Source: a virus
Length of the DNA stretch: 64,000 nucleotides
Direction: 5' to 3' (one strand)
IMG/VR virus record: IMGVR_UViG_3300020464_000002
Location: 1-64,000 of that record
Positions 34,876 through 63,940 of the stretch are shown here, one piece after another. Both the position numbers and the translations under genes were made by a program. The notes below the pieces were generated by a model that ran no database searches, was not told the origin of the DNA, and saw only the letters and a program-made list of their open reading frames with translations. Every line of letters begins with the position of its first letter. The first letter of the stretch is position 1.

Positions 34876-34903
34876 AAATCACCATTTTAACGGACAAAAA
34901 ACT

Positions 34904-38623: not shown

Positions 38624-38634
38624 GAGGTAAGCGC

Positions 38635-39344: not shown

Positions 39345-39364
39345 AGGGCAGGAGGGGCGGCCAC

Positions 39365-40724: not shown

Positions 40725-40784
40725 GTATTAAAAAGTCACTCAAAACAACGCGATTAATCAGCGTGTCAGGCTTGGGCTAATACG

Positions 40785-40883: not shown

Positions 40884-41146
40884 CGTTAAGAAAAGCGACA
40901 CAGGCAACATTTAAAATCGCCCCGCCTTGGGTTAAATCAATCGCGGTTAATCGTAACGGTGAGTGCTGGGGTTTTGAAGTAGTAGTGGCCGACCTTGAAA
41001 GAAACGATCGCCGTTTTTGGTGTGCACTTATGGATAAGAGAGATGTTCTTTTAGGATCAGGTTTTGATACAACCAAGTGGAAGAATAGCGCTATTAATAG
41101 TTTAGAGGTGAAAGCAAGAATACGTCAGCAAAGAAATAATGTGTAA
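40880..41146 (+). CDS. hypothetical protein
   Basis: 88-aa ORF followed by hairpin 41158-41181. Confidence 0.45.
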   Translation: MTLRKATQATFKIAPPWVKSIAVNRNGECWGFEVVVADLERNDRRFWCALMDKRDVLLGSGFDTTKWKNSAINSLEVKARIRQQRNNV

Positions 41147-41157
41147 GCAATAAAAAA

Positions 41158-41181
41158 GCGCCTATGTTCGAGCATAGGCGC
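41158..41181. terminator. strong hairpin, terminator-like (T-run on the minus side only)
   Basis: GCGCCTATG ttcgag CATAGGCGC, preceded by A6 and followed only by TT. Confidence 0.35.
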
Positions 41182-41281
41182 TTAGATCGTTGCAGGATTT
41201 GAACTGAACAACTGGCATAACAATTATACAATGTTATTTGCTTTTTGCAACAATGGTTGTGGAGAGTGTTCAGGGGGAATA

Positions 41282-42917: not shown

Positions 42918-42942
42918 GCTGGCAGGTAATAAGGAGGGGGTT

Positions 42943-43086
42943 ATGGGTAAGATCTTAGAGGTAATTGATAAGATTATTGGGGTTGTAATAGAGCAATCCC
43001 CGCGCTGGCTGGCCATTGTTTTTTATATGATGGTTTTATCGATGCTTATAACTTGGGTAGGGTCGATGTTTAGTTACTACTACTGA
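42943..43086 (+). CDS. 47-aa membrane peptide
   Basis: ATG 42943 after a strong AAGGAGG. Hydrophobic segment WLAIVFYMMVLSMLITWVGSMF. Confidence 0.45.
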   Translation: MGKILEVIDKIIGVVIEQSPRWLAIVFYMMVLSMLITWVGSMFSYYY

Positions 43087-43096: not shown

Positions 43097-43171
43097 AAGG
43101 AACACCAAGGCCGCCGTATCACTTAGCAATGCCATAATCTAATGACTGAATTATCAAATAAGGCATAGATC
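43097..43171 (+). promoter_or_regulatory. late-promoter unit C (degenerate box)
   Basis: AGGAACACCAAGG 43097-43109. TGn plus CATAAT 43132-43137. Weak 5-bp IR ATGCC/GGCAT 43128-43132/43162-43166. ATG 43172. Confidence 0.45.
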
Positions 43172-45535
43172 ATGACATACCTAAACTATGATGCTGGCGG
43201 CTTCATCGTTGGCGTTAATAAAATGAATGATGGTATCGACCGTGTGCACAATGACACGCAAGAGATCATCCAAATACTAAAGAGCCAAAATCAAATTGCT
43301 AATACGCGCATGACTGAGCTAACAAGGGCGGTCAGAAAGGCCACCTATCAAGCCAGTAGTCAGAGCGCCGTTAACAACAACCGAGAACGCGCCGCCAGTG
43401 GCCGCACCTCGTCCACAAGTCGCATTGCCGGTGAACCCGCCAGCATAACCCGACAAGCACCAAGCGCTAGACAGCGCACGCAATCAAACAGCAACACTCA
43501 AAACATTGGTAGTCAGGCACGCGCCGCAAGACGCAACCAAGGCGGTAGTCAGGCGGATGGTGACGCCGTACCGATCAGCCGTGACAGCACCAATGCCAGC
43601 ACGCGAACGCGCAGCCCCAACAGTGACAGCCCCGCCAGTACGGACGCAGCAGGGCGCGAACGTGACGCAAGAGGTCGCTTTACTGGGGGTAGTAGCTCAG
43701 CGTCCGAAAACGAGCGTAGAAAGCTGGGTTTTGGCTCATTAAGTGGCGGCCGCAGTGATACCAGTGGCATTGACCCATTAGTCGATAGCTTTAGAGAGGC
43801 AAAAGATCTTTTATCGCCGATTGGTGGCATTGGTAAGCTGGCAGGTCGCGGCGTTAAATTTAGCGTGTCAAAGCTAAGGGCTATGAAGCGGCGGGAACCA
43901 TTGCCAAACGATCAAGATCGACATAACAATGAGAACGAGAAGCTACTAGATAAGATCTTAAAGGCCATTATAAAGCAAGGCAGTAACGGCGGCGGTGGCG
44001 GCTTGCTGGGCGGCTTACTGGGCGGCGGTCGCGGTGGCCGTGGCGGTGGCCTCAAAAACCTATTTAAGAAAATGGGCGGCCTAAAGGCGCTAGGCGTAAT
44101 TGGGGCGCTGGCTGGTACAGCTGGCCTTGCGATGGACTGGGATAATCTTGATCATCAAGGCAAATCAGAGGGTGTAGGTAGGCTGGCGGGTGCTGGCGCT
44201 GGTGCAATCGCTGGCGCGACCGCTGGATCACTAGTCGTACCAGTGGTCGGTACAGCTATTGGCGCGGTTGTTGGTGGCTGGCTTGGTAGTGAGGGCGGTG
44301 AATGGCTTGGCGGTGTGGCCTCACCATATATTCAGAGTTGGACGAGCGCGATCACAGCCTATAACTTGCCAGCGAAAATGAGCGACACATGGGATGATGG
44401 TATTAAACCGTTTTTTACTCGCATGGACGCGCTGGCAGGTAAGATGAGCGCTTGGGTTGATCGAAAAATGACCGATATTGGCGATGCTGTCTCATCGACT
44501 GGCGCGGGGCTTAGTGAAGCGCTTGGACTGGCAGATCTTGGCTCGGTGGCAGAGAAGTATGAATCCGGTGGGCGCGGCGTTGGTACGATATCAACGGGCA
44601 AAGGTGATCACGGCGGCGTATCGTATGGCACACATCAGTTATCATCAAAAACCGGTACGATGGCCGCGTTTTTAAGAAGTCCTGACGGTAAGAAGTTTGC
44701 CGACGAGTTTGCGGGCATGTCGGCCGGATCAGCGGCGTTTAATGCCAAGTATAAAGACGTGGTTAGCAGACGCGGTGACGAGTTTAAGCAAGCGCAAAAA
44801 GACTACATTACCCGCACGCACTACATGCCGGCTAAAAAGATCGCTGAAGGGTACGGCTTCGACACCTCTAATCGTGGTATTCAGGAAGCTATTTACTCGC
44901 ACTCTACCCAGTACGGGGCTAACCATAAGTCACGGTTTAAGCGGGTGGCAGAGTCAGGCGTTGATATGTCCGACAATGAGGCTGTGTTAAAGGCGTTTTA
45001 TGAAGACAAGGCGCGTTACGTTGATAGCGACTTTAAAAGCAGCTCAGCAAACGTAAGGGCTGGCGTGCGCAAGCGCATCAAGAGTGAGAAAGCGGACGTA
45101 TTGGCCATTTCTAAGGTATCGGACGTTAAAGAGGCGGTTGTAAATGCTGTTGCGCCTGAAACCGCGCCAAAGAGTGAGACTGGTAAATATACTGGCGGTA
45201 TCATGGGGCGTGACGCTAGAGAGCAAATCAAGTCTGTTGCAAATAAAGGATCATTGGATAAGGTTAGCAGCAACTTTAGCGACAACGTGCCAATGATCTT
45301 TAATTCGAGCACGCCAGCTGGCAGGGATCTTGGTTATGCCCCCGCAAACTTCCCTAGTGCACCTATGCTGAATGTGCCTAATATGCCAAAGGTTAAGCAA
45401 CGACTGGATAGCGGCGGGGATAGCAAGCCGATCATGATACAGAGCAGCAATGACAGCATTAACCAAAACGTGTCAGACCGCAGCTTGGCACACGCGATCA
45501 CTGGTGGGTTAGGCCAACAACGCCAGTGGGGTTGA
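43172..45535 (+). CDS. 787-aa glycine-zipper membrane-active virion protein with a putative C-terminal cell-wall hydrolase-like domain
   Basis: S/T/R-rich disordered region, a G-rich run (GGGGGLLGGLLGGGRGGRGGG), glycine-zipper helices (AGAGAGAIAGATAGS...GTAIGAVVGGWLG), then YESGGRGVGTISTGKGDHGGVSYGTHQLSS. Confidence 0.4.
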   Translation: MTYLNYDAGGFIVGVNKMNDGIDRVHNDTQEIIQILKSQNQIANTRMTELTRAVRKATYQASSQSAVNNNRERAASGRTSSTSRIAGEPASITRQAPSARQRTQSNSNTQNIGSQARAARRNQGGSQADGDAVPISRDSTNASTRTRSPNSDSPASTDAAGRERDARGRFTGGSSSASENERRKLGFGSLSGGRSDTSGIDPLVDSFREAKDLLSPIGGIGKLAGRGVKFSVSKLRAMKRREPLPNDQDRHNNENEKLLDKILKAIIKQGSNGGGGGLLGGLLGGGRGGRGGGLKNLFKKMGGLKALGVIGALAGTAGLAMDWDNLDHQGKSEGVGRLAGAGAGAIAGATAGSLVVPVVGTAIGAVVGGWLGSEGGEWLGGVASPYIQSWTSAITAYNLPAKMSDTWDDGIKPFFTRMDALAGKMSAWVDRKMTDIGDAVSSTGAGLSEALGLADLGSVAEKYESGGRGVGTISTGKGDHGGVSYGTHQLSSKTGTMAAFLRSPDGKKFADEFAGMSAGSAAFNAKYKDVVSRRGDEFKQAQKDYITRTHYMPAKKIAEGYGFDTSNRGIQEAIYSHSTQYGANHKSRFKRVAESGVDMSDNEAVLKAFYEDKARYVDSDFKSSSANVRAGVRKRIKSEKADVLAISKVSDVKEAVVNAVAPETAPKSETGKYTGGIMGRDAREQIKSVANKGSLDKVSSNFSDNVPMIFNSSTPAGRDLGYAPANFPSAPMLNVPNMPKVKQRLDSGGDSKPIMIQSSNDSINQNVSDRSLAHAITGGLGQQRQWG

Positions 45536-46182: not shown

Positions 46183-46260
46183 AGGAACACCCCACCAGCC
46201 AGCCCCCGCAAGCCCCTTAAACTAGACGTATTCACCACGTTTATTTAAGGGGCATTTTTT
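46183..46260 (+). promoter_or_regulatory. late-promoter unit D
   Basis: AGGAACACCCCACC 46183-46196. TAAACT 46218-46223. IR GCCCCTTAAA/TTTAAGGGGC 46212-46221/46244-46253, then AT6. ATG 46261. Confidence 0.55.
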
Positions 46261-47190
46261 ATGTCAAAAAGAACAGATCCAATCACCTATAACCTAGCAG
46301 ATCGCGGCCGCAAGCATGTTGGCGTTGATCGATCGGACATGAATATTCAATCAATGATTGAGCGTATCAACGCGCCTGATGTTCAAGAGCTGGTGGCCAG
46401 CGGCGATCTATACGGCTATTACGGCCATGAAGTACGCGCACGTTTTGGTATGAACCCGCCTGATGTTTGGTTGAACCCCAAAACTGGCGAAAACATACGC
46501 ATCGAGCCAGCCCTACGCACAATCGAGCTGACCGCCGACAGTGACGGCAATGTCACGTCAAGACATGAGTTTTTAGACACCGATACTGGTAAATACTCAG
46601 AACGTCTTTACACCAACAAGGCTGGCGGGTTTAGCAGTGCTGTTATGCGTAAGCGCGGCGCGTCAGGCAAGTTTGATATCACAGGTTTTTACGGCTTTGA
46701 TTATGTGCGCCAGCCTAATTACAACACCAATCGCGGTAATGGCATGTTCGATAGCTTGTTTTGGCTTGATGAAGAAGAAGCTGAAATGGCGTTTGATAGC
46801 TTGGACAACCTAACCCCGCAGCAAGCCAGCCACAAGGCCGCGCTTGAAGCCGCCATTTTGCACCAGTACGACAGCATTGCCACCGCTAATGAAGCGGACG
46901 TGATGATCGGTCATTACCAAAATGAGTTAATGCGATCGCAAGACGAGCAGATCAGCCGCCAAGAGAAGTTGGAGCGCCTACGCCAGCGCCGCCATGATCG
47001 CAAACTAGAGGTTTTTGACAGTCTGATTTGTCCGTCAGTGCCGTTTGATGAGGCTGTGGCGCAGTGGGATAGTTTCAACGCGCAGGGCACAAGTGATCTT
47101 GACCTACGCACGACAGGCGACACCAAAAAAGCCAAGGCTGATCAAGAGCGCCACCGCCGCGAACGCACCCGCATTTTTAAAGGCCGCTAA
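46261..47190 (+). CDS. possible prohead protease/scaffold-type protein
   Basis: 309-aa ORF. The N-terminal half has YGYYGHEVR, GGFSSAV and FDYVRQPN patterns reminiscent of prohead protease families. C-terminal coiled-coil R/E-rich tail. Confidence 0.3.
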   Translation: MSKRTDPITYNLADRGRKHVGVDRSDMNIQSMIERINAPDVQELVASGDLYGYYGHEVRARFGMNPPDVWLNPKTGENIRIEPALRTIELTADSDGNVTSRHEFLDTDTGKYSERLYTNKAGGFSSAVMRKRGASGKFDITGFYGFDYVRQPNYNTNRGNGMFDSLFWLDEEEAEMAFDSLDNLTPQQASHKAALEAAILHQYDSIATANEADVMIGHYQNELMRSQDEQISRQEKLERLRQRRHDRKLEVFDSLICPSVPFDEAVAQWDSFNAQGTSDLDLRTTGDTKKAKADQERHRRERTRIFKGR

Positions 47191-50641: not shown

Positions 50642-50692
50642 TTGCAACTTGCAATTTGCAATTTGCAAGTTGCAATATCAAGGCGCTTGCAA
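50642..50692. repeat. five tandem TTGCAAN heptads forming a 34-bp palindrome, plus a sixth TTGCAA
   Basis: TTGCAA at 50642, 50649, 50656, 50663, 50670 and 50687. Positions 50642-50675 are self-complementary except for one T-T pair (50655/50662). Confidence 0.85.
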
Positions 50693-50741: not shown

Positions 50742-50817
50742 TGGAACACGTCTAATCATGCCAGCTGGCACGCGGTAAAATTATCCATACTCATTAATTG
50801 AATAGCGAATAATAATT
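50742..50817 (+). promoter_or_regulatory. late-promoter unit E
   Basis: TGGAACACGTCTAAT 50742-50756. TAAAAT 50776-50781. No clear IR. ATG 50818. Confidence 0.5.
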
Positions 50818-53181
50818 ATGGCGGCTAATACCAAATCTATTATTTTTAAGATCACCGAGGCTGGCAAGCAAGCTGCCCTTGATGCTCAAGAAAATGCAGC
50901 ACAAATAAAAATCAATCTAACACAAGTGGCCGTTGGTACAGGTAAGCGCATTATTACCGGTAATGAAACGGCGTTACTATCCGAAGTTAAGAGATCTGCT
51001 ATTGTCTCAGGCGATATTGAGGTAAACAGTAATACTTTACGCTTTACCAGCCCGATGAATGGCAGCGCTAAAACTGATGTTTACGAGGTGGGGTTGTTCA
51101 CTGATGCCGGCGTATTGTTTGCTGTTGCCTCATCGACTGATAACCCGCTATTTAGCTTGCATCCTGACATTACTTTTGTGATTGGCTTTGGCTTATCTTT
51201 GCAAGACGTGGCAGCCGATAGCGTGACGGTCACAACTGATCCCAATGGGGCGCTGGCAATAGTCATCATGGAGCAGCATTTAGCCGCGCCTGATCCGCAT
51301 CCGCAATATCTTAATAAGGATCGTTTTCAGTTTGCCATGCGTGCCCTATATCCTATCGGTTATCAATATCATTCACACGAAGCGGTAAACCCTAAGCCTA
51401 TCTTTGATGATATTTTAGGAGTCGATACGGCTTGGCGGCGTATCACCGGTAAGATCATAATTGCCTCAGATCCTAACGATCCGTTTATCAATGATCATAG
51501 TATCGTCTTAGGTCAGCGCGGTATGACTGATCTTGCTAGCAGTGGTCAGCGTCCGCATGTCTATCCATTGCAGACAACGCACTTATTTGAGCGTTATGAC
51601 CCTAACTCAAACATCGATACTGTATGGAATGTCAGAGCAGACAAAAACTCTATTGGCGAGGGAGGCAATGTCCGATTTACCGTGACTGCCAATAATCTGC
51701 CGGATGGTCAGTCGCTAGATTGGACGGTTAAAGAGGGGGTGCTCGATAGCGCCAATAATAATATCACCAGTCCTGAGAAAACCGATCAAGGCCAAGTCAC
51801 GTTGACAAATGGTCAAGCGATTATAAATTACACTACCACAGAGGATGATAACGAAGTAGAGCCGCAAAAACACGTCCGCCTAACCGTGGGCGCACCGGCT
51901 AACTTGTCAATCAATGTACCGATCAATGATCTAGGTAACACTGAATCGATTGTCCATATTGCCCAAAGCACAACCAACGGCATACAGCTTGATGAATACT
52001 ACAAACAGCAAAGCGGTAGCTACCCAGCTGCTAGCGATAAGATTCGCTTTATTGTTGATGAAGGCGTGGATATTATCGCACCTGACACGCAAACGCCCGC
52101 ATTGGTAGAGGGCGCGAATTGGCCTACAGGTAATACCCCTATCGTAGAAAATCATGGGCGCATCTTAGGGCGTGGCGGTGACGGTGGACGTAGTGCAGAG
52201 TATCAAGGCGGTCAATTTGTTAATGAATTACCGAAGTCTGAAAATGATGAAAATTGGGTAATGCCGGAGAATGGAAAAAATGGCGGCGTGGCCGTTTATT
52301 CATCAAAACAACCTATCATCATAGAAAACTACAACCTTGTCGCGGGCGGCGGCGGCGGCGGAGCTGGCGGCGGTGCAGTAACCTATAGGATTGACAGTCA
52401 GTACAATGATGCAGGTGCTTATGAAATGGTAGGTGGGAGTGGTTCAGGCGGCGGCGCACCGCTTGGCAAAAGATCGCCTAACGCTAACACTATCGAGAGC
52501 TATTACAAGTATAGTGCAGCAGAGGGTTATACGGTTTTTGATTATGAAAACCTATCATCCCCGATACGCTTCATGATAGTACAGAAAGAAGATGGGAGGT
52601 GCGATTTTTCCCCTTGGTGGAGTGGTGGTGGTGACACTATCAGCAAGATTATCCCCCAAAAAGACCCCACACTTAAAGACTCATTTCCTCGTTTTTTTAC
52701 ACCGTACTACGAAAGCAACGGAGTGGATTATAAGCTCATCTCATACGAGGTAAATGAAGATATCGCAGATCAATCGTTACCTTGGGTACAGGGTAATGGA
52801 GGTAGGGTTTACCATAACCATAGCGTCAAGCTCAGACAATCAACAGACGGCACGATAACTAGCGGCGGTGATTACGGTTATGGGGGTATCGGGATTGTAG
52901 GCGCAAACGTAAGATCAGATCTTGTTATGCCTAATTATTTTGAAGCGTTAGATTTTAGCCAGTATCACGGAGGATCAGGCGGGGATTTAGGTAGCAGTGG
53001 TGGTACAGGCGCAAATATTACTAAGCCAACAATACGAAAATTGTTGGGTGACAGGCTTCTTGGGGATTATGCAAAGGTGCATGAAATAACACCCGCAGCA
53101 AAAGGCGGCTTAGCCGGTTACGTCAAAGAAGGTAATGTCACCATTACAAACTACGGAAGCGGAATAACCAAGGGGCGTTAA
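50818..53181 (+). CDS. tail fibre protein (tail-collar/DUF3751-type N-terminus, glycine-rich distal part)
   Basis: N-terminus FKITEAGKQAALDAQ...TQVAVGTGK...EVGLFTDAGVLFAV matches the P2 gpH-type collar domain. Gly runs GGGGGGAGGG, GGSGSGGG and GGSGGDLGSSGGTG. Confidence 0.65.
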   Translation: MAANTKSIIFKITEAGKQAALDAQENAAQIKINLTQVAVGTGKRIITGNETALLSEVKRSAIVSGDIEVNSNTLRFTSPMNGSAKTDVYEVGLFTDAGVLFAVASSTDNPLFSLHPDITFVIGFGLSLQDVAADSVTVTTDPNGALAIVIMEQHLAAPDPHPQYLNKDRFQFAMRALYPIGYQYHSHEAVNPKPIFDDILGVDTAWRRITGKIIIASDPNDPFINDHSIVLGQRGMTDLASSGQRPHVYPLQTTHLFERYDPNSNIDTVWNVRADKNSIGEGGNVRFTVTANNLPDGQSLDWTVKEGVLDSANNNITSPEKTDQGQVTLTNGQAIINYTTTEDDNEVEPQKHVRLTVGAPANLSINVPINDLGNTESIVHIAQSTTNGIQLDEYYKQQSGSYPAASDKIRFIVDEGVDIIAPDTQTPALVEGANWPTGNTPIVENHGRILGRGGDGGRSAEYQGGQFVNELPKSENDENWVMPENGKNGGVAVYSSKQPIIIENYNLVAGGGGGGAGGGAVTYRIDSQYNDAGAYEMVGGSGSGGGAPLGKRSPNANTIESYYKYSAAEGYTVFDYENLSSPIRFMIVQKEDGRCDFSPWWSGGGDTISKIIPQKDPTLKDSFPRFFTPYYESNGVDYKLISYEVNEDIADQSLPWVQGNGGRVYHNHSVKLRQSTDGTITSGGDYGYGGIGIVGANVRSDLVMPNYFEALDFSQYHGGSGGDLGSSGGTGANITKPTIRKLLGDRLLGDYAKVHEITPAAKGGLAGYVKEGNVTITNYGSGITKGR

Positions 53182-54663: not shown

Positions 54664-55226
54664 GCTTACGGATAGAAAATGAGCTGGTGACGAATGGCCA
54701 GCGTTTGGCCAATCGCATTATCACCTTGCGCAGTCAGTCAGTGATCCCTACCTTTGCTTTTAGACGCGTTGTTTTACCAGTCGGTGACAGTACCAACGAC
54801 CGCGACCGTGATACTTGGTCAGGGCTTGGCACGGTAAGCAATAGCGATGAGCACGCGATTGATTACAAGCCGTTAGGTCATGCCATGGTTTTAATGCTCG
54901 ATAGCTTGGGCGGCGCGTTTCATGATACTGGCATGTTTGTTTTGCCCGAAGAAATGTCATCGATCGTACTGGTTGAGCCTTACGATATCAAGTTGCAGGG
55001 CGATGAGCGCTTAAAAAATATGCCAAATTGGGAGCCAAAAAAAGGCGATCTTCTTTGTTTTATGCTAAACGGCCATAAGGAGTACCACGAAGTCACAGGC
55101 ATCATGGCGCAAGCAATGCTTGCCAGCGCTGGCAAGCGATACGCACTGGCGCAGCGCTTCGATCTTGACTACCTCGATGCGTTTGACGAGAGCGACATAA
55201 AGGATGTGGCCACGCCCTATGAGTAA
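54660..55226 (+). CDS. hypothetical head-module protein
   Basis: 188-aa ORF with an ATGA overlap. Followed by terminator 55252-55274. Confidence 0.45.
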   Translation: MSLRIENELVTNGQRLANRIITLRSQSVIPTFAFRRVVLPVGDSTNDRDRDTWSGLGTVSNSDEHAIDYKPLGHAMVLMLDSLGGAFHDTGMFVLPEEMSSIVLVEPYDIKLQGDERLKNMPNWEPKKGDLLCFMLNGHKEYHEVTGIMAQAMLASAGKRYALAQRFDLDYLDAFDESDIKDVATPYE

Positions 55227-55251
55227 AAATCAATATACCAATCACTAAATA

Positions 55252-55274
55252 AGCCGCCTAATAAGCGGCTTTTT
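55252..55274 (+). terminator. intrinsic terminator
   Basis: AGCCGC ctaataa GCGGCT followed by TTTT. Confidence 0.65.
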
Positions 55275-55279
55275 GCGTT

Positions 55280-55378
55280 TGGAACACCCCTAAAACGCCC
55301 ATTTGAAACGCTATTAACATTAATCCTATCAGTTTAGATGTTCTATCACTATCCAACCGACCATATAGGATTAACCCC
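55280..55378 (+). promoter_or_regulatory. late-promoter unit F (capsid gene)
   Basis: TGGAACACCCCTAAAACG 55280-55297. TAACAT 55315-55320. IR AATCCTAT/ATAGGATT 55322-55329/55365-55372. ATG 55379. Confidence 0.6.
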
Positions 55379-57193
55379 ATGGATAAGAAGCAAGCAGCAG
55401 TATTTGACGCAGCAGCACATAAAGAAGTACAGGCAGTACGCCGCCTGATGCGTTCTTTAGAAAACAAGGGCAATAGCAGCGATCAAGTCGCCGCGTTTGA
55501 CTCGATGCTGGCAAGCAACCCCCAAGGCCGTGAGGCAGCAATGAGCGAGCTACCCGAGTCGCTACAGCGTATCTTAAACAGTAAATACATGGCAGAAGAC
55601 AAGCAAGCCGTTTTTGATGGTTTAGAAGACGGTATTATTGAATTTAAACGCCGTAATGGTGGTGAAATGCCGTCAGAGTACGCGATTGCCGCCGCATTGA
55701 CCACAGCCGCCGCGCCGTTTGGTGGTGCTGAAAAATACGATAGCAACTCAGAGCCTACGTTTGATAGCCTATCACTAGGTCATCATGAAGCGTTGTCAGT
55801 CGTGCCAGCCGCAACTCAAGTCATTATCGCGTACGGTATCTCTAACTCACTACCACTGCTATCGATGTTACCTAACCCAATGGGTAGCAACGAATTGCCG
55901 ATCGTTTATGGTACAGCTGTTGCCGGCTTAGACATGGGCGTTATGCGCCGTGGTGAATTGATGGACGGCGACAAAGCGGGTATGCCATACCTAGAAAACC
56001 GTCATACATTGACCATGGAAAAGACCGCCGCTGGCACGTTCACGCTAGAATCTCATGTCGCTTATACCGCTGAAAAGCGCGGCGATAAAACTGTTAAATT
56101 TACCGTTGATAAAACCTCGTCACTTGCGCCGTTCTTAGGCGGCCGTGTTGTCGTTATGATCAAGGGCATTGAGATCGCCAACGACAAGCACCGTGATCAC
56201 CCGACTAAGGGTGGCCGTAGTGTTCTACAGCCGCTAGATCCAGTTGATATCGGTACAGATACTTATATCGTAACAACCGCTGTGGCTGATCTTGACACGT
56301 ACACTATCGAAGTGAATTTTGATACGACAAACGGCGTTGATCCTGAGCCTGATGACGTGAGCATTGAGCTTATCTTTGACTACGAGCGTAAAGACAGCAA
56401 CGGCAACAATATTTTGCGTGAACCATCGGTAGATATGGAGTTTTTACACCGTTCTATCTATGCAGCCCCTCATCGTTCGCGTTCTACCGCAACAATCGAT
56501 GCGATCACTCAGCTATCGAATGAGCTTGGTATCAACTGGTACGGAGCCGCGCAGACAATCGCTATGCAGCGTTACTACTTTGAGCAGACAGGCCGCTTAT
56601 TGCGCACCGCGTTTAATATGTGTCTATCGGATCAAAACCCAAAAACTGGCCGCGTGGTGACGTTTGACTTTAACAAGACTGGTGTGTCACCGACCAACCT
56701 AGCGGATGCGTTTTCTAACGTCAATATTACGTTAGGGCTGGCGCGTACTCGCTTGTCTCGCGCTATTAACACAGCGATTGCAGGTTACGATCTGTATGTA
56801 TCAGATCGCGGCGCGGCGTTCTTCTCAGGCATGGGCGGCCAAAACTACGAATCAACAGGCGTACCGTTTGGTGATCAGTATTCCGTCTACCGTATTGGCC
56901 GTCTTAAAAACAACGGTGCAAACGTCTATTACGTTCCATCAAGCATGGGCGTATTTGATGAAGAAACGGACACCACCACAGCACACGCATTGTTAGTGCC
57001 ACGCGCTATCACGCCAGCACAAGCGCCGTTTGTTGGCTTTACCGCAGTACCGCCAATGGTGCTAACGTCAAATGCCACCGCGTTTGAAAAAGACGTGGCG
57101 ATCTACAGCCGTATGGCTGGCGAGGTTAACCCGCTACCTCGTTATCGCAATCAGTGCATGTTGATTGAAATGATCAACTTGCCAGCGCTTTAA
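55379..57193 (+). CDS. putative major capsid protein (604 aa, possibly with a cleavable N-terminal domain)
   Basis: Has its own box promoter and is followed by a strong terminator. Size and position are capsid-like. No motif-level proof. Confidence 0.45.
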   Translation: MDKKQAAVFDAAAHKEVQAVRRLMRSLENKGNSSDQVAAFDSMLASNPQGREAAMSELPESLQRILNSKYMAEDKQAVFDGLEDGIIEFKRRNGGEMPSEYAIAAALTTAAAPFGGAEKYDSNSEPTFDSLSLGHHEALSVVPAATQVIIAYGISNSLPLLSMLPNPMGSNELPIVYGTAVAGLDMGVMRRGELMDGDKAGMPYLENRHTLTMEKTAAGTFTLESHVAYTAEKRGDKTVKFTVDKTSSLAPFLGGRVVVMIKGIEIANDKHRDHPTKGGRSVLQPLDPVDIGTDTYIVTTAVADLDTYTIEVNFDTTNGVDPEPDDVSIELIFDYERKDSNGNNILREPSVDMEFLHRSIYAAPHRSRSTATIDAITQLSNELGINWYGAAQTIAMQRYYFEQTGRLLRTAFNMCLSDQNPKTGRVVTFDFNKTGVSPTNLADAFSNVNITLGLARTRLSRAINTAIAGYDLYVSDRGAAFFSGMGGQNYESTGVPFGDQYSVYRIGRLKNNGANVYYVPSSMGVFDEETDTTTAHALLVPRAITPAQAPFVGFTAVPPMVLTSNATAFEKDVAIYSRMAGEVNPLPRYRNQCMLIEMINLPAL

Positions 57194-57220
57194 TCATCAA
57201 GCAAAGGCTTAGCCACTAAA

Positions 57221-57256
57221 AGCCTTGCTGTCATGAGTGGCAGCAGGGCTTTTTTT
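57221..57256 (+). terminator. strong intrinsic terminator after the capsid gene
   Basis: AGCCTTGCTG tcatgagtgg CAGCAGGGCT (one G-U pair) followed by T7. Competes with upstream hairpin 57204-57226. Confidence 0.75.
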
Positions 57257-57292
57257 AAATCTATTTTTAACCAATACCCAAGGATTACCGAT

Positions 57293-57988
57293 ATGACAGA
57301 CGTTAAGCAATTACCTGAAAATCTTGATCAACTAGAGCAGCTGACAGAGTTCAAACGCGTGTATAAAAAATACACCGCTGATCAGCTGGAAGATCTATTG
57401 ACCGAAGCTGAGGTGGATTACCTAAGCGCTGACAACAAGTCAGAGCTAACATGGCGCTTACTGGATCATCAGGGCTTTGATTTTGAAGCCGCGCTTGCCG
57501 AAGAAAACAGCGATCAATCAGCACCGCAAGATGAGCCAGTACCAGCGGATGATAAGAATGATGCCAATGAAGACGTACAGACGGTTCAAGATGATGCTGA
57601 TAGCGAGCAAGGCGATCAGATCGATAGCGAAGCAAACGCCGATCTTGGTTCAGGTGGTGAAAGCACTGACGACAGCGAAAAATCTAGTCAAATGGATAAC
57701 GTTACCAACGATTATGCGCCGTCAGATATTAGTAACGGCAATGACGCTAACGCAAACGAAGTTGAGCAACCAGCAGAAGCGGCAGATCAGCCAGTGAAAG
57801 AGAAAGATCATGTGGCCGTTTTTAATACTGGTGCGTGGCCTTTTTTCGAGACAGCGACCAGCACGCTAGTTCCCGCTAAGAAGACAACTAAGATCTATCC
57901 TACGGCCTCAGTCGATAAAGATCGGATTTTGCGTAATGTGGAGCAGTACAACCACACACGCGGTAATAAATTGCGCGTTATTAATTAA
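57293..57988 (+). CDS. highly acidic protein with a SAP/Rho-N-like N-terminal helix pair
   Basis: ATG 57293 after AAGGA. The track start 57233 overlaps the terminator. Long D/E/Q/N-rich central region. Confidence 0.5.
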   Translation: MTDVKQLPENLDQLEQLTEFKRVYKKYTADQLEDLLTEAEVDYLSADNKSELTWRLLDHQGFDFEAALAEENSDQSAPQDEPVPADDKNDANEDVQTVQDDADSEQGDQIDSEANADLGSGGESTDDSEKSSQMDNVTNDYAPSDISNGNDANANEVEQPAEAADQPVKEKDHVAVFNTGAWPFFETATSTLVPAKKTTKIYPTASVDKDRILRNVEQYNHTRGNKLRVIN

Positions 57989-58005
57989 GCGAGTGGTGAT
58001 TTATT

Positions 58006-58036
58006 GGCGGCCATGCTGACGTTGTGGCCGTCTTTT
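58006..58036 (+). terminator. intrinsic terminator
   Basis: GGCGGCCA tgctgacgttg TGGCCGTC followed by TTTT. Confidence 0.6.
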
Positions 58037-58059
58037 CTACCTAACACAAGGGATTTGCT

Positions 58060-59148
58060 ATGATCAACAGCAAAACACTAGGATCAGCCGCCGGTATTCA
58101 ATACCAAGGCGTGATCGACAACTCAGAGGGTACGAATCTACCATCACTGGCTAATGGCGTGGTCATTGGCAAGTTTAAGCGCGGGCGCATGGATAAGCCG
58201 TTTAAGGTGACTGCTAGCAACTACAAGGCATTGCTTGGCCGCGATCCATCTAACCCTAGCTACTTAGCCGTAGAGGACGCCTTTAAGCGCGGCGTTAGCG
58301 AGGTTAGTATTTTGCGCATTGGTGGCACTGGCGGCGCAGCAAAGCCCATCCCAGTTAACACAGGAACCGTTATTTTTAGCGTTGAGAGCTACGAGAACCC
58401 ATCTAGTGAATATCCAGTATATATTTATATTGAAAATCCAGTTGGCGACTGGACGCTAACCGAGGCGGGCGAGTTAATCGCTGATTCAACAGGGTTTGCC
58501 GCTGACGGCGTGGATTTGGATATCTATGACGGCGGCGCTGATATTCTCTTTACGGTTGTTACGCCCGACAAGCGATCTTTTGAGCTTGATGTAACCGCCG
58601 AATATGCCGATATTTCTTATGATGGACAGCATAACTTTCATAGCCCAAACAGCGATGTGGCTACCTTAGATCCGCTAGGCGAGGTTGTTATCAGTCAATT
58701 TTCGTCAAAGATACCTAGTTTTTCAACAGCATTTTTCAACACGCTTTTAACCGTGCCTGAACATATACCGCCTGAATTGGTCGATATCAGTTATTTATTT
58801 TTCGAAGCCTCGCGTTTTAACCAAAACATAAGTATGTGGGATGTAAGTCACGTACTCAATATGAATAGCACTTTTTATAACGCTAAGATTTTTAACCAAG
58901 ATCTATCTAATTGGTGTACGCCTAATCTACCGTTCGGTGGTGTAGATTTTGATACTGGCGCCGATGCGTGGTTATTGCCTAGACCAGTTTGGGGTACTTG
59001 TCCACGCAGAGAGGGCGGCGCGACTGATTATGTTTTTGATCCATTGCTACCAAGCCAGCCGCCGAGCACAGATAGCAGTTATATCCGCATAGCACCAGTA
59101 ACGCCGATAGACGGCTGGCATGATGCGTCAAATAACATGACAACATAA
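58060..59148 (+). CDS. anchor-domain paralogue 1 with C-terminal DUF285/BspA-type repeats
   Basis: Conserved 88-aa N-terminus shared with 60407 and 61656. C-terminal FNQNISMWDVSHVLNMNSTFYNAKIFNQDLSNW. Confidence 0.6.
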   Translation: MINSKTLGSAAGIQYQGVIDNSEGTNLPSLANGVVIGKFKRGRMDKPFKVTASNYKALLGRDPSNPSYLAVEDAFKRGVSEVSILRIGGTGGAAKPIPVNTGTVIFSVESYENPSSEYPVYIYIENPVGDWTLTEAGELIADSTGFAADGVDLDIYDGGADILFTVVTPDKRSFELDVTAEYADISYDGQHNFHSPNSDVATLDPLGEVVISQFSSKIPSFSTAFFNTLLTVPEHIPPELVDISYLFFEASRFNQNISMWDVSHVLNMNSTFYNAKIFNQDLSNWCTPNLPFGGVDFDTGADAWLLPRPVWGTCPRREGGATDYVFDPLLPSQPPSTDSSYIRIAPVTPIDGWHDASNNMTT

Positions 59149-59157
59149 GGGTGATTC

Positions 59158-60294
59158 ATGACTACTATAGCAGCTTGTTTAAAAGTAAAAATAAACAATC
59201 AGGAGGCAAAGCTAAATAGTTTTGTTGATCTAAATTTTAATAACTTGTCAGACATTAGCACTGAACAGCTAGCGGTCGTTAGATTGCTTAAAAACTATCT
59301 TGGTGGGTTTTTTAGATGGTCGCAACTATTGCCTGATAGAGAGCTTGGTATCATGGATGGTGTTGGCGGTATGGGTGGCGAGCCAGCAGATAAAAGCGGG
59401 TTTTACATAGGCACTATCAATATGCGCGAATATCCGTTCTCATTCGCCGCTTTCGATGAGCAGCAATTTAGATCAGCGATTAGTGAGGTTGAAGATGTAT
59501 TGAAACTCTTTAATTTTGACGAGCTTGTCAATGCCGCCAGCCTTGAGGATTTGCAGCAGTTGATCGATAATGAGATCAATAGTAGCAACCCAAAATATAC
59601 GGTTACGGCTCACACAGAGCCAGTCACCTTGCGTATATTGCGTTGCACACAGAGCGATATTAACTCTATCGCCGTAGACGGTGCGCCGCCTCATGTGGAT
59701 ATGTTCGATTCATTAGTGCAGATGCTACCGCACCACTCACCAACACTGGACAAGGCCGATTATGCGCCAGCTTATTATGACGCTGGATTTGATCAGATTA
59801 TTTTTAAATCTAAGTTTGGCTTGCATCAAAAGCTGGCGGGTTCTAATGATGACTTTGTTACTAGCGTTACAGTCAGTAAAGACCTGATTAATGACACTGT
59901 GACAAATTATCTTTTTTCATATCAGATTAACGATAGACCTATTGTTAGAGCTAGTTTTGACGGCAGTAGCTTTATGCCAACCTCGCTTGCGGACTATATC
60001 GTATGGCACATGCCTGATGATCATATATTCAAGTTTGATTTTGACCGACACCCTAGCGATAACGAGATTTTACAGCCGTTTTGGATCAACAACGAAAGCG
60101 ATGCTAACGGTAATTATGTTTTCTCAGGCTTAGACGGTACGGAGAATATACCCAATGTAACGCTATTTGAGCAGCAAAACACTCTTAAATTCTTATTAAC
60201 GCCTGATGCGACTAATGATAATGACTTAGTACGCATACTATTCGGTGGTGATATTGAAATCAGATCGTCTTTTGCCTCAAGTGGATCTCAATAA
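59158..60294 (+). CDS. companion protein 1 (paralogue of 60805-61527)
   Basis: 378-aa ORF. Shares TLRI.xC, VD(M/I)F and FDEL segments with companion 2. Confidence 0.5.
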   Translation: MTTIAACLKVKINNQEAKLNSFVDLNFNNLSDISTEQLAVVRLLKNYLGGFFRWSQLLPDRELGIMDGVGGMGGEPADKSGFYIGTINMREYPFSFAAFDEQQFRSAISEVEDVLKLFNFDELVNAASLEDLQQLIDNEINSSNPKYTVTAHTEPVTLRILRCTQSDINSIAVDGAPPHVDMFDSLVQMLPHHSPTLDKADYAPAYYDAGFDQIIFKSKFGLHQKLAGSNDDFVTSVTVSKDLINDTVTNYLFSYQINDRPIVRASFDGSSFMPTSLADYIVWHMPDDHIFKFDFDRHPSDNEILQPFWINNESDANGNYVFSGLDGTENIPNVTLFEQQNTLKFLLTPDATNDNDLVRILFGGDIEIRSSFASSGSQ

Positions 60295-60333
60295 TTTTTT
60301 TAAAGTTATCGTCAGGCATCCAAGCCTAGCCTT

Positions 60334-60406
60334 TGGAACACCCTAAAACCCTAACCTCGACAAAGCCTATACTGAGTCATAAACCACTCAGTATAGGCAT
60401 TTTATT
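60334..60406 (+). promoter_or_regulatory. late-promoter unit G
   Basis: TGGAACACCCTAAAAC 60334-60349. TATACT 60368-60373 lies inside IR GCCTATACTGAGT/ACTCAGTATAGGC 60365-60377/60386-60398, then ATTTTATT. ATG 60407. Confidence 0.6.
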
Positions 60407-60754
60407 ATGATCGAGAGTAAAACACTAGGTAGCGCCGCTGGCGTGCAGTATCAGGGCGTTATCGACAAGACAGAAACAAACAGCTTGCCGTCATTGGCCA
60501 ATGGCGTGGTCATTGGCAAGTTTAAGCGCGGCCGTATGGACAAGCCGTTTAAGGTGACTGCCGTCAATTATCAGGCATTGCTAGGGCGTGATCCGATGAA
60601 TCCAAGCTACTTAGCAGTAGAGGATGCCTTTAGGCGCGGTATTAGCGAGGTGAGCGTATTGCGCGTTGGCCAAACGGGCGGCGCGTCAGTTGTGGAGGTC
60701 GAAAAATACAGCTATCTTGATTTATCGCTACCCTTGCCGCCAGCCGTCGCTTAA
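60407..60754 (+). CDS. anchor-domain paralogue 2 (short, 115 aa; anchor module only)
   Basis: Same N-terminal module, then 25 unrelated residues and a stop. May be a truncated copy. Confidence 0.45.
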   Translation: MIESKTLGSAAGVQYQGVIDKTETNSLPSLANGVVIGKFKRGRMDKPFKVTAVNYQALLGRDPMNPSYLAVEDAFRRGISEVSVLRVGQTGGASVVEVEKYSYLDLSLPLPPAVA

Positions 60755-60804
60755 ACCTACCGCAATAATAAACATGAATTTTTAATAAATATAAGGATTT
60801 TCTT

Positions 60805-61527
60805 ATGGCTAACGAATGGTTTTATGCAGCATGTGCAAAAATGCAGGTTAATAACAGTGAGCCTTTCATACTATCTTTTGAAGATACTGCTTTTAGAGAT
60901 ATGGCTGAACAAATACCCAACGTAGATTTTAACGATTTATGTATTTTTGCTTTAATTTCGCCATTTTTCACCCCCAATGTAACAAATATGGATCAAAATT
61001 GGTCGGCACGCTTGCCGCGCTTAAATTTCACTGCCATTCCTGAAGATATGGTCATGTTAGGCCGGCAGGTTAATAGCCTATCTAACCCTTATCCCGAAAA
61101 CCGCACTGGTCTTGTTTGTTTTACTAAAGAATCGTTTAAGGCGCTCATGATGCAAGAGCCGCCCACTACGGACATGACGCCACAGGAGTGGCAAGACTTG
61201 GTAATTAGCACACCATTTGATGAGCTACAATCTCTACTAGAAACGTTTGGATCATCACCTTTCAAGATTAATGGTACGAGATCAACGCTCAGAATAATGC
61301 CATGTAGTCGAGAAGAAATAAAGAGCCTTGATCCGTACGGCGGGCTTGATGCGCCGCGTGTAGATATTTTTAACCTTGTTAAAGAGCGTTTAACCAATAC
61401 GGTTAAACAGCTTGACGATAAGGGTTTAGAGCCAGCCAAATACTATGCAGGCGGCAATTATATCGAGTTTGTTGCGGAGTGTTCGATAAGTATTTCTGAG
61501 ACTATGCCTACTAACCCACAGTTATGA
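60805..61527 (+). CDS. companion protein 2
   Basis: 240-aa ORF, paralogous to 59158-60294. Confidence 0.5.
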   Translation: MANEWFYAACAKMQVNNSEPFILSFEDTAFRDMAEQIPNVDFNDLCIFALISPFFTPNVTNMDQNWSARLPRLNFTAIPEDMVMLGRQVNSLSNPYPENRTGLVCFTKESFKALMMQEPPTTDMTPQEWQDLVISTPFDELQSLLETFGSSPFKINGTRSTLRIMPCSREEIKSLDPYGGLDAPRVDIFNLVKERLTNTVKQLDDKGLEPAKYYAGGNYIEFVAECSISISETMPTNPQL

Positions 61528-61582
61528 TAAGGATTAGCTTGACAGGTGAGTAGCTGGTGTCGAGCGAACCCGATTCAAGCTA

Positions 61583-61655
61583 TGGAACACTGCTAAAGCC
61601 ACAAGCCAAGCCAAGCCTATACTGAGCTATTACTACTCAGTATAGGCTTTTTATT
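61583..61655 (+). promoter_or_regulatory. late-promoter unit H
   Basis: TGGAACACTGCTAAAG 61583-61598. TATACT 61618-61623 lies inside IR GCCTATACTGAG/CTCAGTATAGGC 61615-61626/61636-61647, then a T-run. ATG 61656. Confidence 0.6.
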
Positions 61656-62468
61656 ATGATCAACAGCAAAACACTAGGATCGGCCGCCGGTATTCAATAC
61701 CAAGGCGTTATCGATAAGACAGAAACAAACAGCTTACCGTTATTGGCCAATGGTGTGATCATTGGCCGGTTTAAGCGTGGGCGTATGGATAAACCATTTA
61801 AAGTGACTGCTAATAACTACCAATCGTTGCTAGGCCGCGATCCGTCTAATCCTAGCTACTTAGCGGTTGAGGACGCGTTTAAGCGTGGTATCAGCGAGGT
61901 TAGTATTTTGCGCGTTGGCGGGCGGGCAGCTGGCGATGGTTTAGGCGATGGTTTAGGCGATGGAGGATTGGGCGGCGGCAGTGGTTGGAGTGATATTGAT
62001 TTCGTTGGATCGGTGGGCGGTATGTCGATTGGGTACGAGATGGGTTATCTTTATATATTTCAATACCAAATTAATGATGAAACGCCGGTTATTGTAGAAG
62101 TACCCGCCAACCGGACTGAATTGGTGGGTACTAACCTTGGGATGCTTGTCGTTGACTTCACCCCCAATGTTTTTAAAGATTCAGCAAGCGGTGATCCGTA
62201 TGAGTATTGGATGGAATGGGAGGTTCAAGAAAACTCTAATTGGATTACTCTAAAAGGTCTAAGATCCGGATATACCGCGCCGCAAATGGATTCAATGCTG
62301 GAAAATAATATACTTAGAATAACAGAGGTTTCGGAAGAGGAGCGCTACTCTATATCCATTAACAATCCTAATCTAACAACCTATGATATAGGGCTAAATA
62401 ATAACACTGCTGAAATGGGTGTGAGGTCAGAAATTAGGGTTGTAGCGCCGGATCTAGGTGCTGTGTAA
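61656..62468 (+). CDS. anchor-domain paralogue 3 with GDGLG linker and an unrelated C-terminal domain
   Basis: Same N-terminal module, then GDGLGDGLGDGGLGGGSG, then a domain of about 170 aa. Confidence 0.55.
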   Translation: MINSKTLGSAAGIQYQGVIDKTETNSLPLLANGVIIGRFKRGRMDKPFKVTANNYQSLLGRDPSNPSYLAVEDAFKRGISEVSILRVGGRAAGDGLGDGLGDGGLGGGSGWSDIDFVGSVGGMSIGYEMGYLYIFQYQINDETPVIVEVPANRTELVGTNLGMLVVDFTPNVFKDSASGDPYEYWMEWEVQENSNWITLKGLRSGYTAPQMDSMLENNILRITEVSEEERYSISINNPNLTTYDIGLNNNTAEMGVRSEIRVVAPDLGAV

Positions 62469-62477
62469 ATAAGGCAT

Positions 62478-62551
62478 TGGAACACCCCTAAAGGCCTAAA
62501 GCAAACCTTGCCTATACTGAGTTGATACCAACACAGTATAGGCATTTTATT
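62478..62551 (+). promoter_or_regulatory. late-promoter unit I
   Basis: TGGAACACCCCTAAAG 62478-62493. TATACT 62513-62518 lies inside IR GCCTATACTG/CAGTATAGGC 62510-62519/62534-62543, then ATTTTATT. ATG 62552. Confidence 0.6.
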
Positions 62552-63940
62552 ATGAGCGCTCAGATCCTTTATTTAAGTATTCTAGCGTCTTCCATGGCAC
62601 TGACGGAATCGCCCGATCCCGCAGCGCTGGCAAGCGTAGAGCTTGTCACGGAATACGCTTTTGATTCAAACGTTGTGGCAAAAGTCATGGTGGTTGATCA
62701 AAAAACCTTTACCACTGCCGCCGACCCCTTAAACAACCTTGTTTTTAAGATCAGCTTTAACGACAAGATCGATGGCAGTACGCTAACAGAATTACAAGGC
62801 CGTTTATACACTGGCGGCGGCGTTGAGGCGCTAGAAGAAAACCATGCCGATGACTTTAGTTACGTCACAGGTAAGCTAGACTTTCACGGCGCATTAGATA
62901 GCCAGTATGACTTTTTCGAGTCCGTCACGACCAGTTATAGCGCAAGCAGTGCAGCAGCGATCAAAACAGCGCTTGAAACCGTGGGCGCATTAAACGAGCT
63001 TGGCGCTTATCGCACCAAACAAGTTGAATTGGCCGTACCAGCTAGCACCGTAACCGACCTGACACCAAAAGAGCTTAAAAACGCGTTGTTAGACATGCGC
63101 GATCGTCCACGCTACCTAGTCACTTGTGACGTGGCCAGCTTACCCCATATTGAAGCGCTGGCAGAGGTGATGGGTAAGATCAACTGTCACGTATTGCTTG
63201 ATATTGGCAATATCACCGACTGGCAATCAGCCGTAGCGTTAACTGAGACATTGAGCATTAACGATCACCGTTTTTGGGTGTTTTGGAACCCTAATAAGTC
63301 ACGTCCAAGCAATGCAACAACCGTGCTGGCGCGTAAAAAATGGCGACCGTGTGTTGGTGATTACCTCGCTCAATTATTGTTGCGCAACGCGGCCACCAAT
63401 GCCGCTGGCATCCCGCCAATCTATCGACCAATCGCAGGTTACGACTTCCCAGTGGCGTTCCGCGATATGGAAAAAATAGGCGGTTTAACGCTGGATGAAG
63501 AAGCACAAAACGCGCTTGCCAGTGCTGGCGTGAACGTGGTTATTAATGAGCGTTTTGAGGGCGGCGATCGCTGGATCTATGGCGATGCGTTGACCCAGTA
63601 TGACAGCAAGACCAGCGCCTTGCGCCTGATCAACTCATCCGAGATTGAGACTTATACCGCCAATGTTGTGATCGGCATTGCTAAAAAGCACTTGCTAAAA
63701 GGTATGAGTAGTTATGTCAAAGATGCGACCAATGAGTGTGAGCGCTTTTTGGATTCATGCGTTGTTGATGATAGTGGTAAGGGCTTGTTGGTGCAGTCGT
63801 CAGAGCTTGGCGGTCGTTATTATGCGCTAAGTATTACGCCACGCGCTGACGATCCATTCAGTAAAGTAGATATCAAGTTTAGCCGCCGTCCGCAAGGTTG
63901 TGCACGCCAAGCATTTTTAGAAACCACAGTAACGAAGTAA
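62552..63940 (+). CDS. contractile tail sheath protein
   Basis: C-terminal pattern ALASAGVNVVINERFEGGDRWIYGDALTQ ... RYYALSITPRADDPFSKVDIKF resembles the sheath C-terminal domain. ATG 62552 fits the box spacing. The track start 62522 lies inside the hairpin. Confidence 0.55.
   Translation: MSAQILYLSILASSMALTESPDPAALASVELVTEYAFDSNVVAKVMVVDQKTFTTAADPLNNLVFKISFNDKIDGSTLTELQGRLYTGGGVEALEENHADDFSYVTGKLDFHGALDSQYDFFESVTTSYSASSAAAIKTALETVGALNELGAYRTKQVELAVPASTVTDLTPKELKNALLDMRDRPRYLVTCDVASLPHIEALAEVMGKINCHVLLDIGNITDWQSAVALTETLSINDHRFWVFWNPNKSRPSNATTVLARKKWRPCVGDYLAQLLLRNAATNAAGIPPIYRPIAGYDFPVAFRDMEKIGGLTLDEEAQNALASAGVNVVINERFEGGDRWIYGDALTQYDSKTSALRLINSSEIETYTANVVIGIAKKHLLKGMSSYVKDATNECERFLDSCVVDDSGKGLLVQSSELGGRYYALSITPRADDPFSKVDIKFSRRPQGCARQAFLETTVTK

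Follow-up and report, generated by a model that had tools for sequence, protein, structure and literature searches.

Late promoters of a Psychrobacter prophage family overlap hairpins predicted to mask the ribosome-binding site on read-through transcripts

We analyzed a 64,000-nucleotide stretch of viral DNA (positions 1 to 64,000 of IMG/VR record IMGVR_UViG_3300020464_000002, hereafter the window), a nearly complete ~65 kb genome of a temperate myovirus of Psychrobacter, and found that almost all of its late promoters and their short leaders are overlaid by inverted repeats specific to each transcription unit. The 5′ arm of the repeat covers or abuts the −10 element, and the 3′ arm holds the Shine–Dalgarno (SD) sequence AGG or the AUG of the first gene. 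This arrangement probably represents gating of the type described for e, soc, 49 and I-TevI of phage T4, in which a promoter lies inside an inhibitory hairpin, here deployed at almost every late unit, in many of them in combination with an intrinsic terminator. RNA polymerase starting at a unit’s own promoter would produce RNA that lacks the 5′ arm and presents an open ribosome-binding site; RNA arriving from upstream would carry both arms, fold into the hairpin and hide that site. About half of the units have a GC-rich stem with a U-tract after it, and there the hairpin would also terminate the incoming transcript at the start codon. The expected outcome is that the first gene of each late unit would be expressed solely from its own activator-dependent promoter. 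Candidate sources of upstream RNA would be the co-directional early operon, the preceding late units and host transcription entering the prophage; the early genes (33979–43086) and all late units are co-directional, and a terminator scan found no plus-strand terminator between them.

Each late transcription unit appears to start at an activator-type promoter composed of an upstream box and a −10 element, with no −35. We aligned 88 units from the window and its relatives on the −10 hexamer, two positions of which had served as selection criteria, and conservation in the resulting logo was confined to the box, the −10 and the predicted +1, an A. The box is an asymmetric TGGAACACCCC.AAA at about −47 to −33, seen in the logo as a conserved T-GGAACACCCC-AAA, and its location is where class II activators or sigma-appropriating factors act. 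The −10 consensus is yAwAAT; beyond the selected positions, 84% of units have A at −9 and 68% have A at −8. We take as the predicted +1 the position 7 nucleotides (nt) downstream of the −10, which is A in 74% of units and is then followed by T in 61%; a conserved A at this distance fits a start site inside the hairpin. No conserved positions were found from −32 to −13, and the promoter therefore seems to have neither a −35 hexamer nor a −10 of the extracytoplasmic function (ECF) type. All ten window units have an xAxxxT hexamer exactly 28 nt after GGAACA (Table 1), and leaders measured from the predicted +1 to the ATG are 26–31 nt long, or 52 nt in one window unit. We also considered GGAAC as the −35 element of an ECF sigma factor, a reading rejected on its 28 nt spacing to the −10 and on finding nothing conserved 16–17 nt downstream. 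Separately, a box-like GGAACACGGCAAAA at 14094–14107, with a properly spaced TAAAAT/AAAATA hexamer after it, falls within a coding region and precedes the ATG at 14290 by 196 nt; the related locus L114 conserves it, and it could be either an internal late promoter or a product of coding conservation.

Hairpins at these promoters exceed chance expectation. Each leader was scored for folding against 200 dinucleotide shuffles, by which six of the ten window units were strongly structured (z from −3.8 to −8.4), two were marginal (about −2.1) and two were unstructured; all ten have the −10 within or directly beside the 5′ arm. By comparison, 56 other gene starts in the window had a mean z of 0.04 (sd 1.0), with 4% at z < −2. 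The enrichment at late units was significant (Fisher P = 3 × 10−7) and stayed so when three units that share an arm sequence were counted as one (P = 1 × 10−5). We used z-scores in place of raw minimum free energy (MFE) in a fixed 48-nt window, a measure that gave a weak difference (P = 0.02), truncates two of the hairpins and is confounded by GC content.

An earlier note on this DNA, made from the sequence, had listed eight arm pairs at these promoters. All eight exist at the positions given in Table 1, seven as perfect reverse complements and one (8254–8261/8276–8283) with a single G·U pair. It had correctly placed an SD-like motif in the 3′ arm of seven of the eight, and a T-run does follow five of them (units 3191, 46184, 60335, 61584 and 62479, each named for the first position of its box). 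The distance of 7–9 nt that it gave between arm end and ATG describes six units, the others having 5 nt (8283/8288) and 13 nt (18414/18427). Arms differ between genes overall, as had been claimed, except that those starting at 60365, 61615 and 62510 share GCCTATACTG and are not independent. Finally, the tally of eight hairpin units out of ten had counted unit 43099 as hairpin-less, overlooking a weak pairing between its −10 and its start codon. A CCTAT/ATAGG core is common to several unrelated units; this is anti-SD/SD pairing together with the T(−1)A(+1) start context.

The geometry is retained across relatives even as the arm sequences change. The window and 45 related loci together yielded 89 distinct units, which we classed by their downstream protein; 66% had z < −2 and 52% had z < −3. 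Counted from the last base of the −10, the predicted +1 is at +7, and the 5′ arm of all 59 strong hairpins in this set begins at some position from −11 to +3, hence upstream of that +1. Relative to the ATG, the end of the 3′ arm varies from 3 nt within the codon to 9 nt short of it (−3 to +9), and 4–35 nt separate the two arms. Arm sequences vary both between genes and between orthologues of one gene, and pairing is kept. The tail tube unit, for instance, occurs with arms GCCTTATC/GATAAGGC, ACCCTATCA/TGATTAGGGT, GCCTTATT/AATAAGGC and GCCCTAT/ATAGGGC; the arms of the 43099 group are wholly different among relatives (CATAATCTA/TAGATCATG, ATAATTTAG/CTAAATTAT, ATAATTGAGTG/CACTCAGTTAT); and the DarB unit has ATTGGTTAT/ATAACCAAT in the window versus TTGATC/GATCAA in the L114 orthologue. 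Orthologues of the tube unit carry compensatory changes (e.g., GC:6/AU:4 and CG:5/UA:4), with double changes in three of eight pairs of a MAFFT alignment. An alignment-free duplex test gave a mean of −13.0 kcal/mol for cognate 5′ and 3′ halves versus −6.6 kcal/mol for halves taken from different gene groups.

We compared SD accessibility in two modelled RNAs for each unit, a read-through RNA running from the box to 30 nt past the ATG and a promoter-initiated RNA running from the predicted +1 to the same end. In late units the median probability of an unpaired SD was 0.01 for the long and 0.46 for the short RNA, whereas control genes cut at equivalent positions showed no such difference (0.45 long, 0.53 short). 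Masking in the long RNA was highly significant (Mann–Whitney P = 8 × 10−11), and the SD was buried (unpaired probability < 0.3) on the long RNA in 77% of 87 units compared to 25% of control genes. In these models, then, the SD or AUG would be sequestered on transcripts begun upstream. The earlier note had proposed that promoter-started RNA begins inside the 5′ arm and cannot fold the hairpin and that read-through RNA has its SD masked, and had suggested folding the leaders with and without that arm; the 0.01 and 0.46 medians, the position of the −10 relative to the arm and the conserved A all support this.

The closest known counterparts are in T4, where early and middle read-through transcripts of e, soc, 49 and I-TevI (also I-TevII/III, segB and Aeh1 mobE) hide the ribosome-binding site in a hairpin (PMC3014915, PMC2988022). 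A late promoter located in the DNA for the hairpin’s 5′ strand gives translatable transcripts without that strand, as shown experimentally, and the gating effect for gene e is roughly 100-fold (PMC3014915, PMC2988022). The Psychrobacter phage units resemble these cases: the 5′ arm contains or adjoins the −10, and the 3′ arm contains the SD or AUG. They differ in that T4 gates a handful of genes and the Psychrobacter phage, a temperate one, would gate nearly every late unit; in that T4 uses the gp55 late promoter TATAAATA and the Psychrobacter phage an unrelated TGGAACACCCC.AAA box with yAwAAT; and in that the Psychrobacter phage hairpin is often merged with a U-tract and would hence also be an intrinsic terminator. 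The T4 cases are experimental, whereas the Psychrobacter phage case is predicted. The two share no sequence homology, and with promoter type, lineage and host all differing, the resemblance is one of functional analogy.

Termination bears on the chief alternative, namely that the hairpins are plain intrinsic terminators of the preceding operon, that very short intergenic regions make them overlap the promoter and SD, and that masking is a by-product. We defined a T-tract as at least five T in the eight bases after a hairpin. By this measure a GC-containing stem is followed by a T-rich tract in five of ten window units and in 44% of strong family hairpins, and unit 60335 was called terminator-like by the terminator scan. 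Stem and T-tract are retained in every relative in groups 3, 6 and 7 (sheath, 46184 and sheath-N-domain paralogues). Furthermore, no unit of the 89 combines a T-rich tract ahead of the ATG (31 units) with a canonical terminator preceding the box (16 units; Fisher P = 8 × 10−4), and the two arrangements replace each other within orthologue groups 0, 1 and 4. This exclusivity argues that the T-tract is functional, and it suggests that T-tract hairpins are working terminators, interchangeable with a conventional one before the promoter. Against this alternative, 56% of the strong hairpins have no T-tract; most orthologues of unit 3191 lose the T-run and keep both the hairpin and the SD pairing; units 18351 and 55281 carry a hairpin despite a canonical terminator before the box (18320–18343 and 55251–55271, respectively); and in the 43099 group the −10 pairs with the AUG with no T-tract at all. 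Compared with ordinary intrinsic terminators, which units 3191, 46184, 60335, 61584 and 62479 resemble in their stable stem and T-rich tract, the Psychrobacter phage stem differs in holding the −10 and start site of the next promoter and in ending at the next start codon, half of the hairpins lack a U-tract, and loops are often longer than canonical. We therefore judge termination as the whole explanation to be unlikely. The termination of read-through RNA envisaged in the earlier note would apply to about half of the units only, those with a T-tract. Located downstream of the −10, a T-tract terminator cannot keep incoming polymerase from occluding the promoter; its effect would be limited to excluding such transcription from the coding region. 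A hairpin of another kind lies between two plus-strand early ORFs (open reading frames) at 41156–41183: its strong 11-base-pair (bp) stem (AAGCGCCTATG...CATAGGCGCTT) has a T-tract on the minus strand only and would terminate antisense, not sense, transcription.

Several observations weigh against gating by sense RNA. No significant hairpin is present in window units 43099 and 50743, and structure is partial in orthologue groups 0, 2, 4 and 5. Covariation within orthologues is modest, with 13 of 500 shuffles reaching the tube-unit score, because bulges shift the register in MAFFT alignments. The hairpin masks the first gene of a unit only, such that without termination the downstream genes on read-through RNA would still be translatable. 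The +1 is predicted from the −10, not mapped, and scans of early-region ORFs with follow-up of a candidate identified no activator recognizing the box. Lastly, stems are almost purely Watson–Crick: the median z is −3.05 for the sense and −3.06 for the antisense strand, and we sought a G·U signature favoring sense RNA in the stems and saw none. Since both strands fold equally, pairing alone cannot separate action as sense RNA from action as DNA. The argument for sense RNA rests instead on the SD or AUG in the 3′ arm, the T-tract on the sense side, the 5′ arm before the +1 and the variable 4–35 nt spacing.

Such equal folding of near-perfect palindromes that extend over the −10 and the first transcribed bases, several with the CCTAT/ATAGG core, could mean that the repeats act as DNA, either as operators for a dimeric protein or as cruciforms or single-strand hairpins that modulate promoter opening in the manner of N4 and other single-stranded DNA promoters. 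We consider this very unlikely. Arm sequences vary from unit to unit, halves from separate units do not pair with one another, a spacing of 4–35 nt suits neither one DNA-binding protein nor easy cruciform extrusion, the common core is accounted for by SD/anti-SD pairing, and the 3′ arm follows the SD and ATG rather than keeping a fixed distance from the promoter. N4 hairpin promoters have a short stem and a 3-nt loop upstream of the start and are used by a virion RNA polymerase; in contrast, the Psychrobacter phage has loops of 4–35 nt and stems that span the start, and no virion RNA polymerase was seen, its giant 2225-aa (amino acid) ORF being DarB-like and not an RNA polymerase.

We give still less credence to starts upstream of the hairpin, whereby a 5′ stem-loop would stabilize late mRNA, as 5′ stem-loops are known to do (T4 gene 32 is an example; PMC8948821), and a factor or ribosome standby (Com-like) would open the SD or a Q-like antiterminator override the terminator: a 213-aa zinc-ribbon protein does sit where lambdoid phages encode Q, but a start above the stem would have no −10, the conserved −10 being inside or adjacent to the 5′ arm with a conserved A 7 nt on, no early-region ORF scanned matched a Q or Com family in Pfam or PHROG, and there are at least ten promoters rather than a single PR′-like one. 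The earlier note had raised Q-type antitermination and a Com-like activator as alternatives. Lambda PR′-tR′-Q and Mu Com/mom do share with the Psychrobacter phage positive late-gene control involving a hairpin near the late transcript start. They differ in that both need the hairpin in the promoter’s own transcript, whereas the Psychrobacter phage has its 5′ arm ahead of the predicted +1; a correct −10 assignment would exclude both, because that transcript would then lack the 5′ arm. Lambda Q, moreover, serves one late promoter, and the Psychrobacter phage has at least ten.

Our search for the late regulator covered ~40 ORFs by PHROG and Pfam scans, which returned no sigma factor, Q, Ogr, Lpa or Com, and ORFs at 25–43 kb gave no match to the Q family. 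The zinc-ribbon protein (40083–40724) is a candidate regulator by position only. It is encoded after the RusA-like resolvase, is the only plausible CxxC-rich ORF, and combines an N-terminal CxxC...CxxCxxC zinc-ribbon motif with a conserved C-terminal domain of ~80 aa. It has homologues in Psychrobacter only and matches no family in Pfam or PHROG, all that an exhaustive profile search recovered were family-less proteins sharing its C-terminal 80 residues, and its AlphaFold model was too poor for structure search (predicted local distance difference test score, pLDDT, 52).

Phage P1 offers a parallel for the promoters themselves. Leader hairpins are not known as a feature of P1 late promoters. 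P1 has 11 dispersed Lpa-dependent late promoters, each with a −10 and a conserved upstream element that replaces the −35 (PMC10695390). Both phages thus have many dispersed activator-type late promoters, and both encode DarA-, DarB- and Ulx-like proteins. The P1 element is a 9-bp inverted repeat that binds Lpa, whereas the Psychrobacter phage box is non-palindromic and lies at −47 to −33; the Psychrobacter phage also differs in having no recognized Lpa homologue, a lambdoid immunity and replication region, and an integrase.

Table 1 Late units and other genes of the window. z, folding z-score of the leader; MFE in kcal/mol where given.
Feature	Strand	Extent	Box	−10	Predicted +1	Hairpin arms	SD	T-tract	z	ATG	Gene
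Unit 3191	+	3191–3267	3191–3204	CAAAAT 3225–3230	A3237	3232–3239/3251–3258 (MFE stem 3231–3240/3250–3259)	AAGG 3254–3257, in 3′ arm	T6 3259–3264	−6.0	3265	tail tube
Unit 8212	+	8212–8290	8212–8225	CAGAAT 8246–8251	A8258	8254–8261/8276–8283, one G·U	AGG 8276–8278, in 3′ arm	no T-run	−2.1, marginal	8288	DarA_N-containing, 1394 aa
Unit 18351	+	18351–18429	GGAACAGTGTAAAA 18351–18364	CATAAT 18385–18390		18389–18397/18406–18414	SD-like GGA 18416–18418, right after arm		−3.8	18427	DarB-like, 2225 aa
Unit 43099	+	43099–43174	43099–43112	CATAAT 43133–43138	A43145	43133–43141 (−10)/43166–43174 (includes ATG), weak, 8/9 pairs	AAGG 43160–43163		−0.4	43172	tail protein with VgrG3-like C-terminal domain, 787 aa
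Unit 46184	+	46184–46263	GGAACACCCCACCA 46184–46197	TAAACT 46218–46223, inside stem	A46230	outer 46212–46221/46244–46253, plus inner stem	AAGG 46247–46250, in 3′ arm	T6 46255–46260	−7.7 (MFE −22.5)	46261	tail/baseplate-region gene, 309 aa
Unit 50743	+	50743–50820	50743–50756	AAAATT 50777–50782	A50789	none significant	none clear		+0.4	50818	tail fibre
Unit 55281	+	55281–55381	55281–55294	TAACAT 55315–55320		55322–55329/55365–55372, 35-nt loop	AGGA 55367–55370, in 3′ arm	no T-run	−2.2, marginal	55379	function unknown, 604 aa
Unit 60335	+	60335–60409	GGAACACCCTAAAA 60335–60348	TATACT 60368–60373, inside 5′ arm	~60380, in loop	60365–60377/60386–60398, 13 bp	AGG 60395–60397	T-rich 60399–60406	−8.4 (MFE −21.7)	60407	sheath-N-domain paralogue, 115 aa
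Unit 61584	+	61584–61658	GGAACACTGCTAAA 61584–61597	TATACT 61618–61623, inside 5′ arm		61615–61626/61636–61647	AGG 61644–61646	T-rich tail	−6.3	61656	sheath-N-domain paralogue, 270 aa
Unit 62479	+	62479–62554	62479–62492	TATACT 62513–62518, inside 5′ arm	A62525	62510–62519/62534–62543, plus inner 4-bp stem	AGG 62540–62542	T-rich tail	−7.3	62552	tail sheath (62552–63940)
Ulx-like protein gene		25123									
Integrase gene		26328									
CI-like repressor	−	33171–33869									
O-like replication initiator		36505–37515									

Units that are weak in the window have some better-structured orthologues. Some orthologues of unit 8212 have far stronger stems (z from −5.5 to −6.2). Unit 43099 is the first late unit past the early rightward operon, and in four of six of its orthologues the −10 pairs with the start-codon region through very different arm sequences (z from −2.6 to −6.8). 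For unit 50743, three of eight orthologues have a hairpin spanning −10 to ATG (z from −2.5 to −2.8). Of the units that are strong in the window, unit 46184 has a GC-rich stem and T-tract in seven of seven orthologues and unit 62479 has strong structure in ten of ten.

Other sequence features accompany individual units. A GC-rich inverted repeat of 8–9 bp (46143–46150/46202–46209; GCGGGGGC / GCCCCCGC) surrounds the 46184 box, and read-through RNA there would form two neighboring hairpins (−52 kcal/mol, z −5.7); it was rejected as a family feature, being not conserved in six relatives examined. The 50642–50692 region, within the 120-nt spacer that immediately precedes the tail-fibre late unit, holds five palindromic TTGCAA hexamers at a 7-nt period (TTGCAACTTGCAATTTGCAATTTGCAAGTTGCAA) and a sixth at 50687–50692, in what looks like a protein-binding array. 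Relatives carry an eleventh late unit just upstream of the ORF found at 47–346 of the window (MKLSDIT...), within ~1.2 kb absent from the window; this unit (at 3307 in locus L085, 12425 in L138, and others) has a strong hairpin in half of 16 orthologues, some with a T-tract.

That same L085 bridges the end of the window to its start over ~1.2 kb, and the window is thus almost the entire circularly permuted ~65 kb genome. Every gene from 33979 through 64000 and round to ~25551 is on the plus strand, with early genes preceding late genes. PHROG and Pfam scans of the immunity and replication region, which is lambdoid in type, also identified Cro-, CII- and Ant-like proteins and a RusA-like resolvase. 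Prophages of Psychrobacter piscatorii, P. aquimaris and Psychrobacter sp. FME13 encode sheath proteins 87–96% identical to that of the window, and many related IMG/VR contigs of 64–76 kb were found. Among isolated phages, megablast with 55000–63000 gave no match and tblastn with the sheath gave only matches of ~28% identity; we therefore regard this as a phage family with no characterized isolate. A scan for related loci with the DarB N-terminus returned no loci, and Rfam at gathering thresholds found no family in the whole window.

Two further features of this genome lie outside the late promoters. Within the O-like initiator gene, an 18-nt palindromic sequence (TTCGGATCTGAATCCGAG and similar) occurs four times at 36818–36940, the arrangement of lambda-type origin iterons. 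In addition, three ORFs near the sheath gene (58060–59148, 60407–60754 and 61656–62468; 362, 115 and 270 aa) have a common N-terminal domain of ~95 aa, the 115-aa and 270-aa paralogues being 71% and 48% identical overall to the 362-aa ORF. This domain matches residues 6–90 of the tail-sheath profile phrog_1036, and the sheath gene itself matches that profile only at positions 105–531; it thus looks as if separate genes supply the sheath N-domain, several paralogues that differ in their C-termini. In locus L130, among other relatives, there are three sheath-N-domain copies, and each has a box-hairpin unit of its own.

Taken to its full extent, the arrangement may amount to a grammar of insulation, a proposal we make tentatively and hold with less confidence than the gating itself. 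Every activator-dependent late promoter would sit inside its own silencer or terminator hairpin, and transcripts begun elsewhere could not be translated or could not extend into the unit, rendering some eleven modules independent of read-through from early genes, neighboring units and the host, and the terminator would be swappable in evolution between a place in front of the promoter and fusion with the promoter-leader. If this is true, the trick known from gene e and I-TevI would be a general, independently evolved design rule for the entire late regulon of an unrelated temperate phage, embodied in a composite element of ~75 bp that combines activator box, −10, terminator and translational mask and leaves the promoter immune to its own terminator. 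Such an element would bear on how prophages silence their structural and lysis genes and could serve as an insulating part for synthetic biology, and it would provide a defined late-promoter motif for an uncharacterized group of ~65 kb Psychrobacter prophages.

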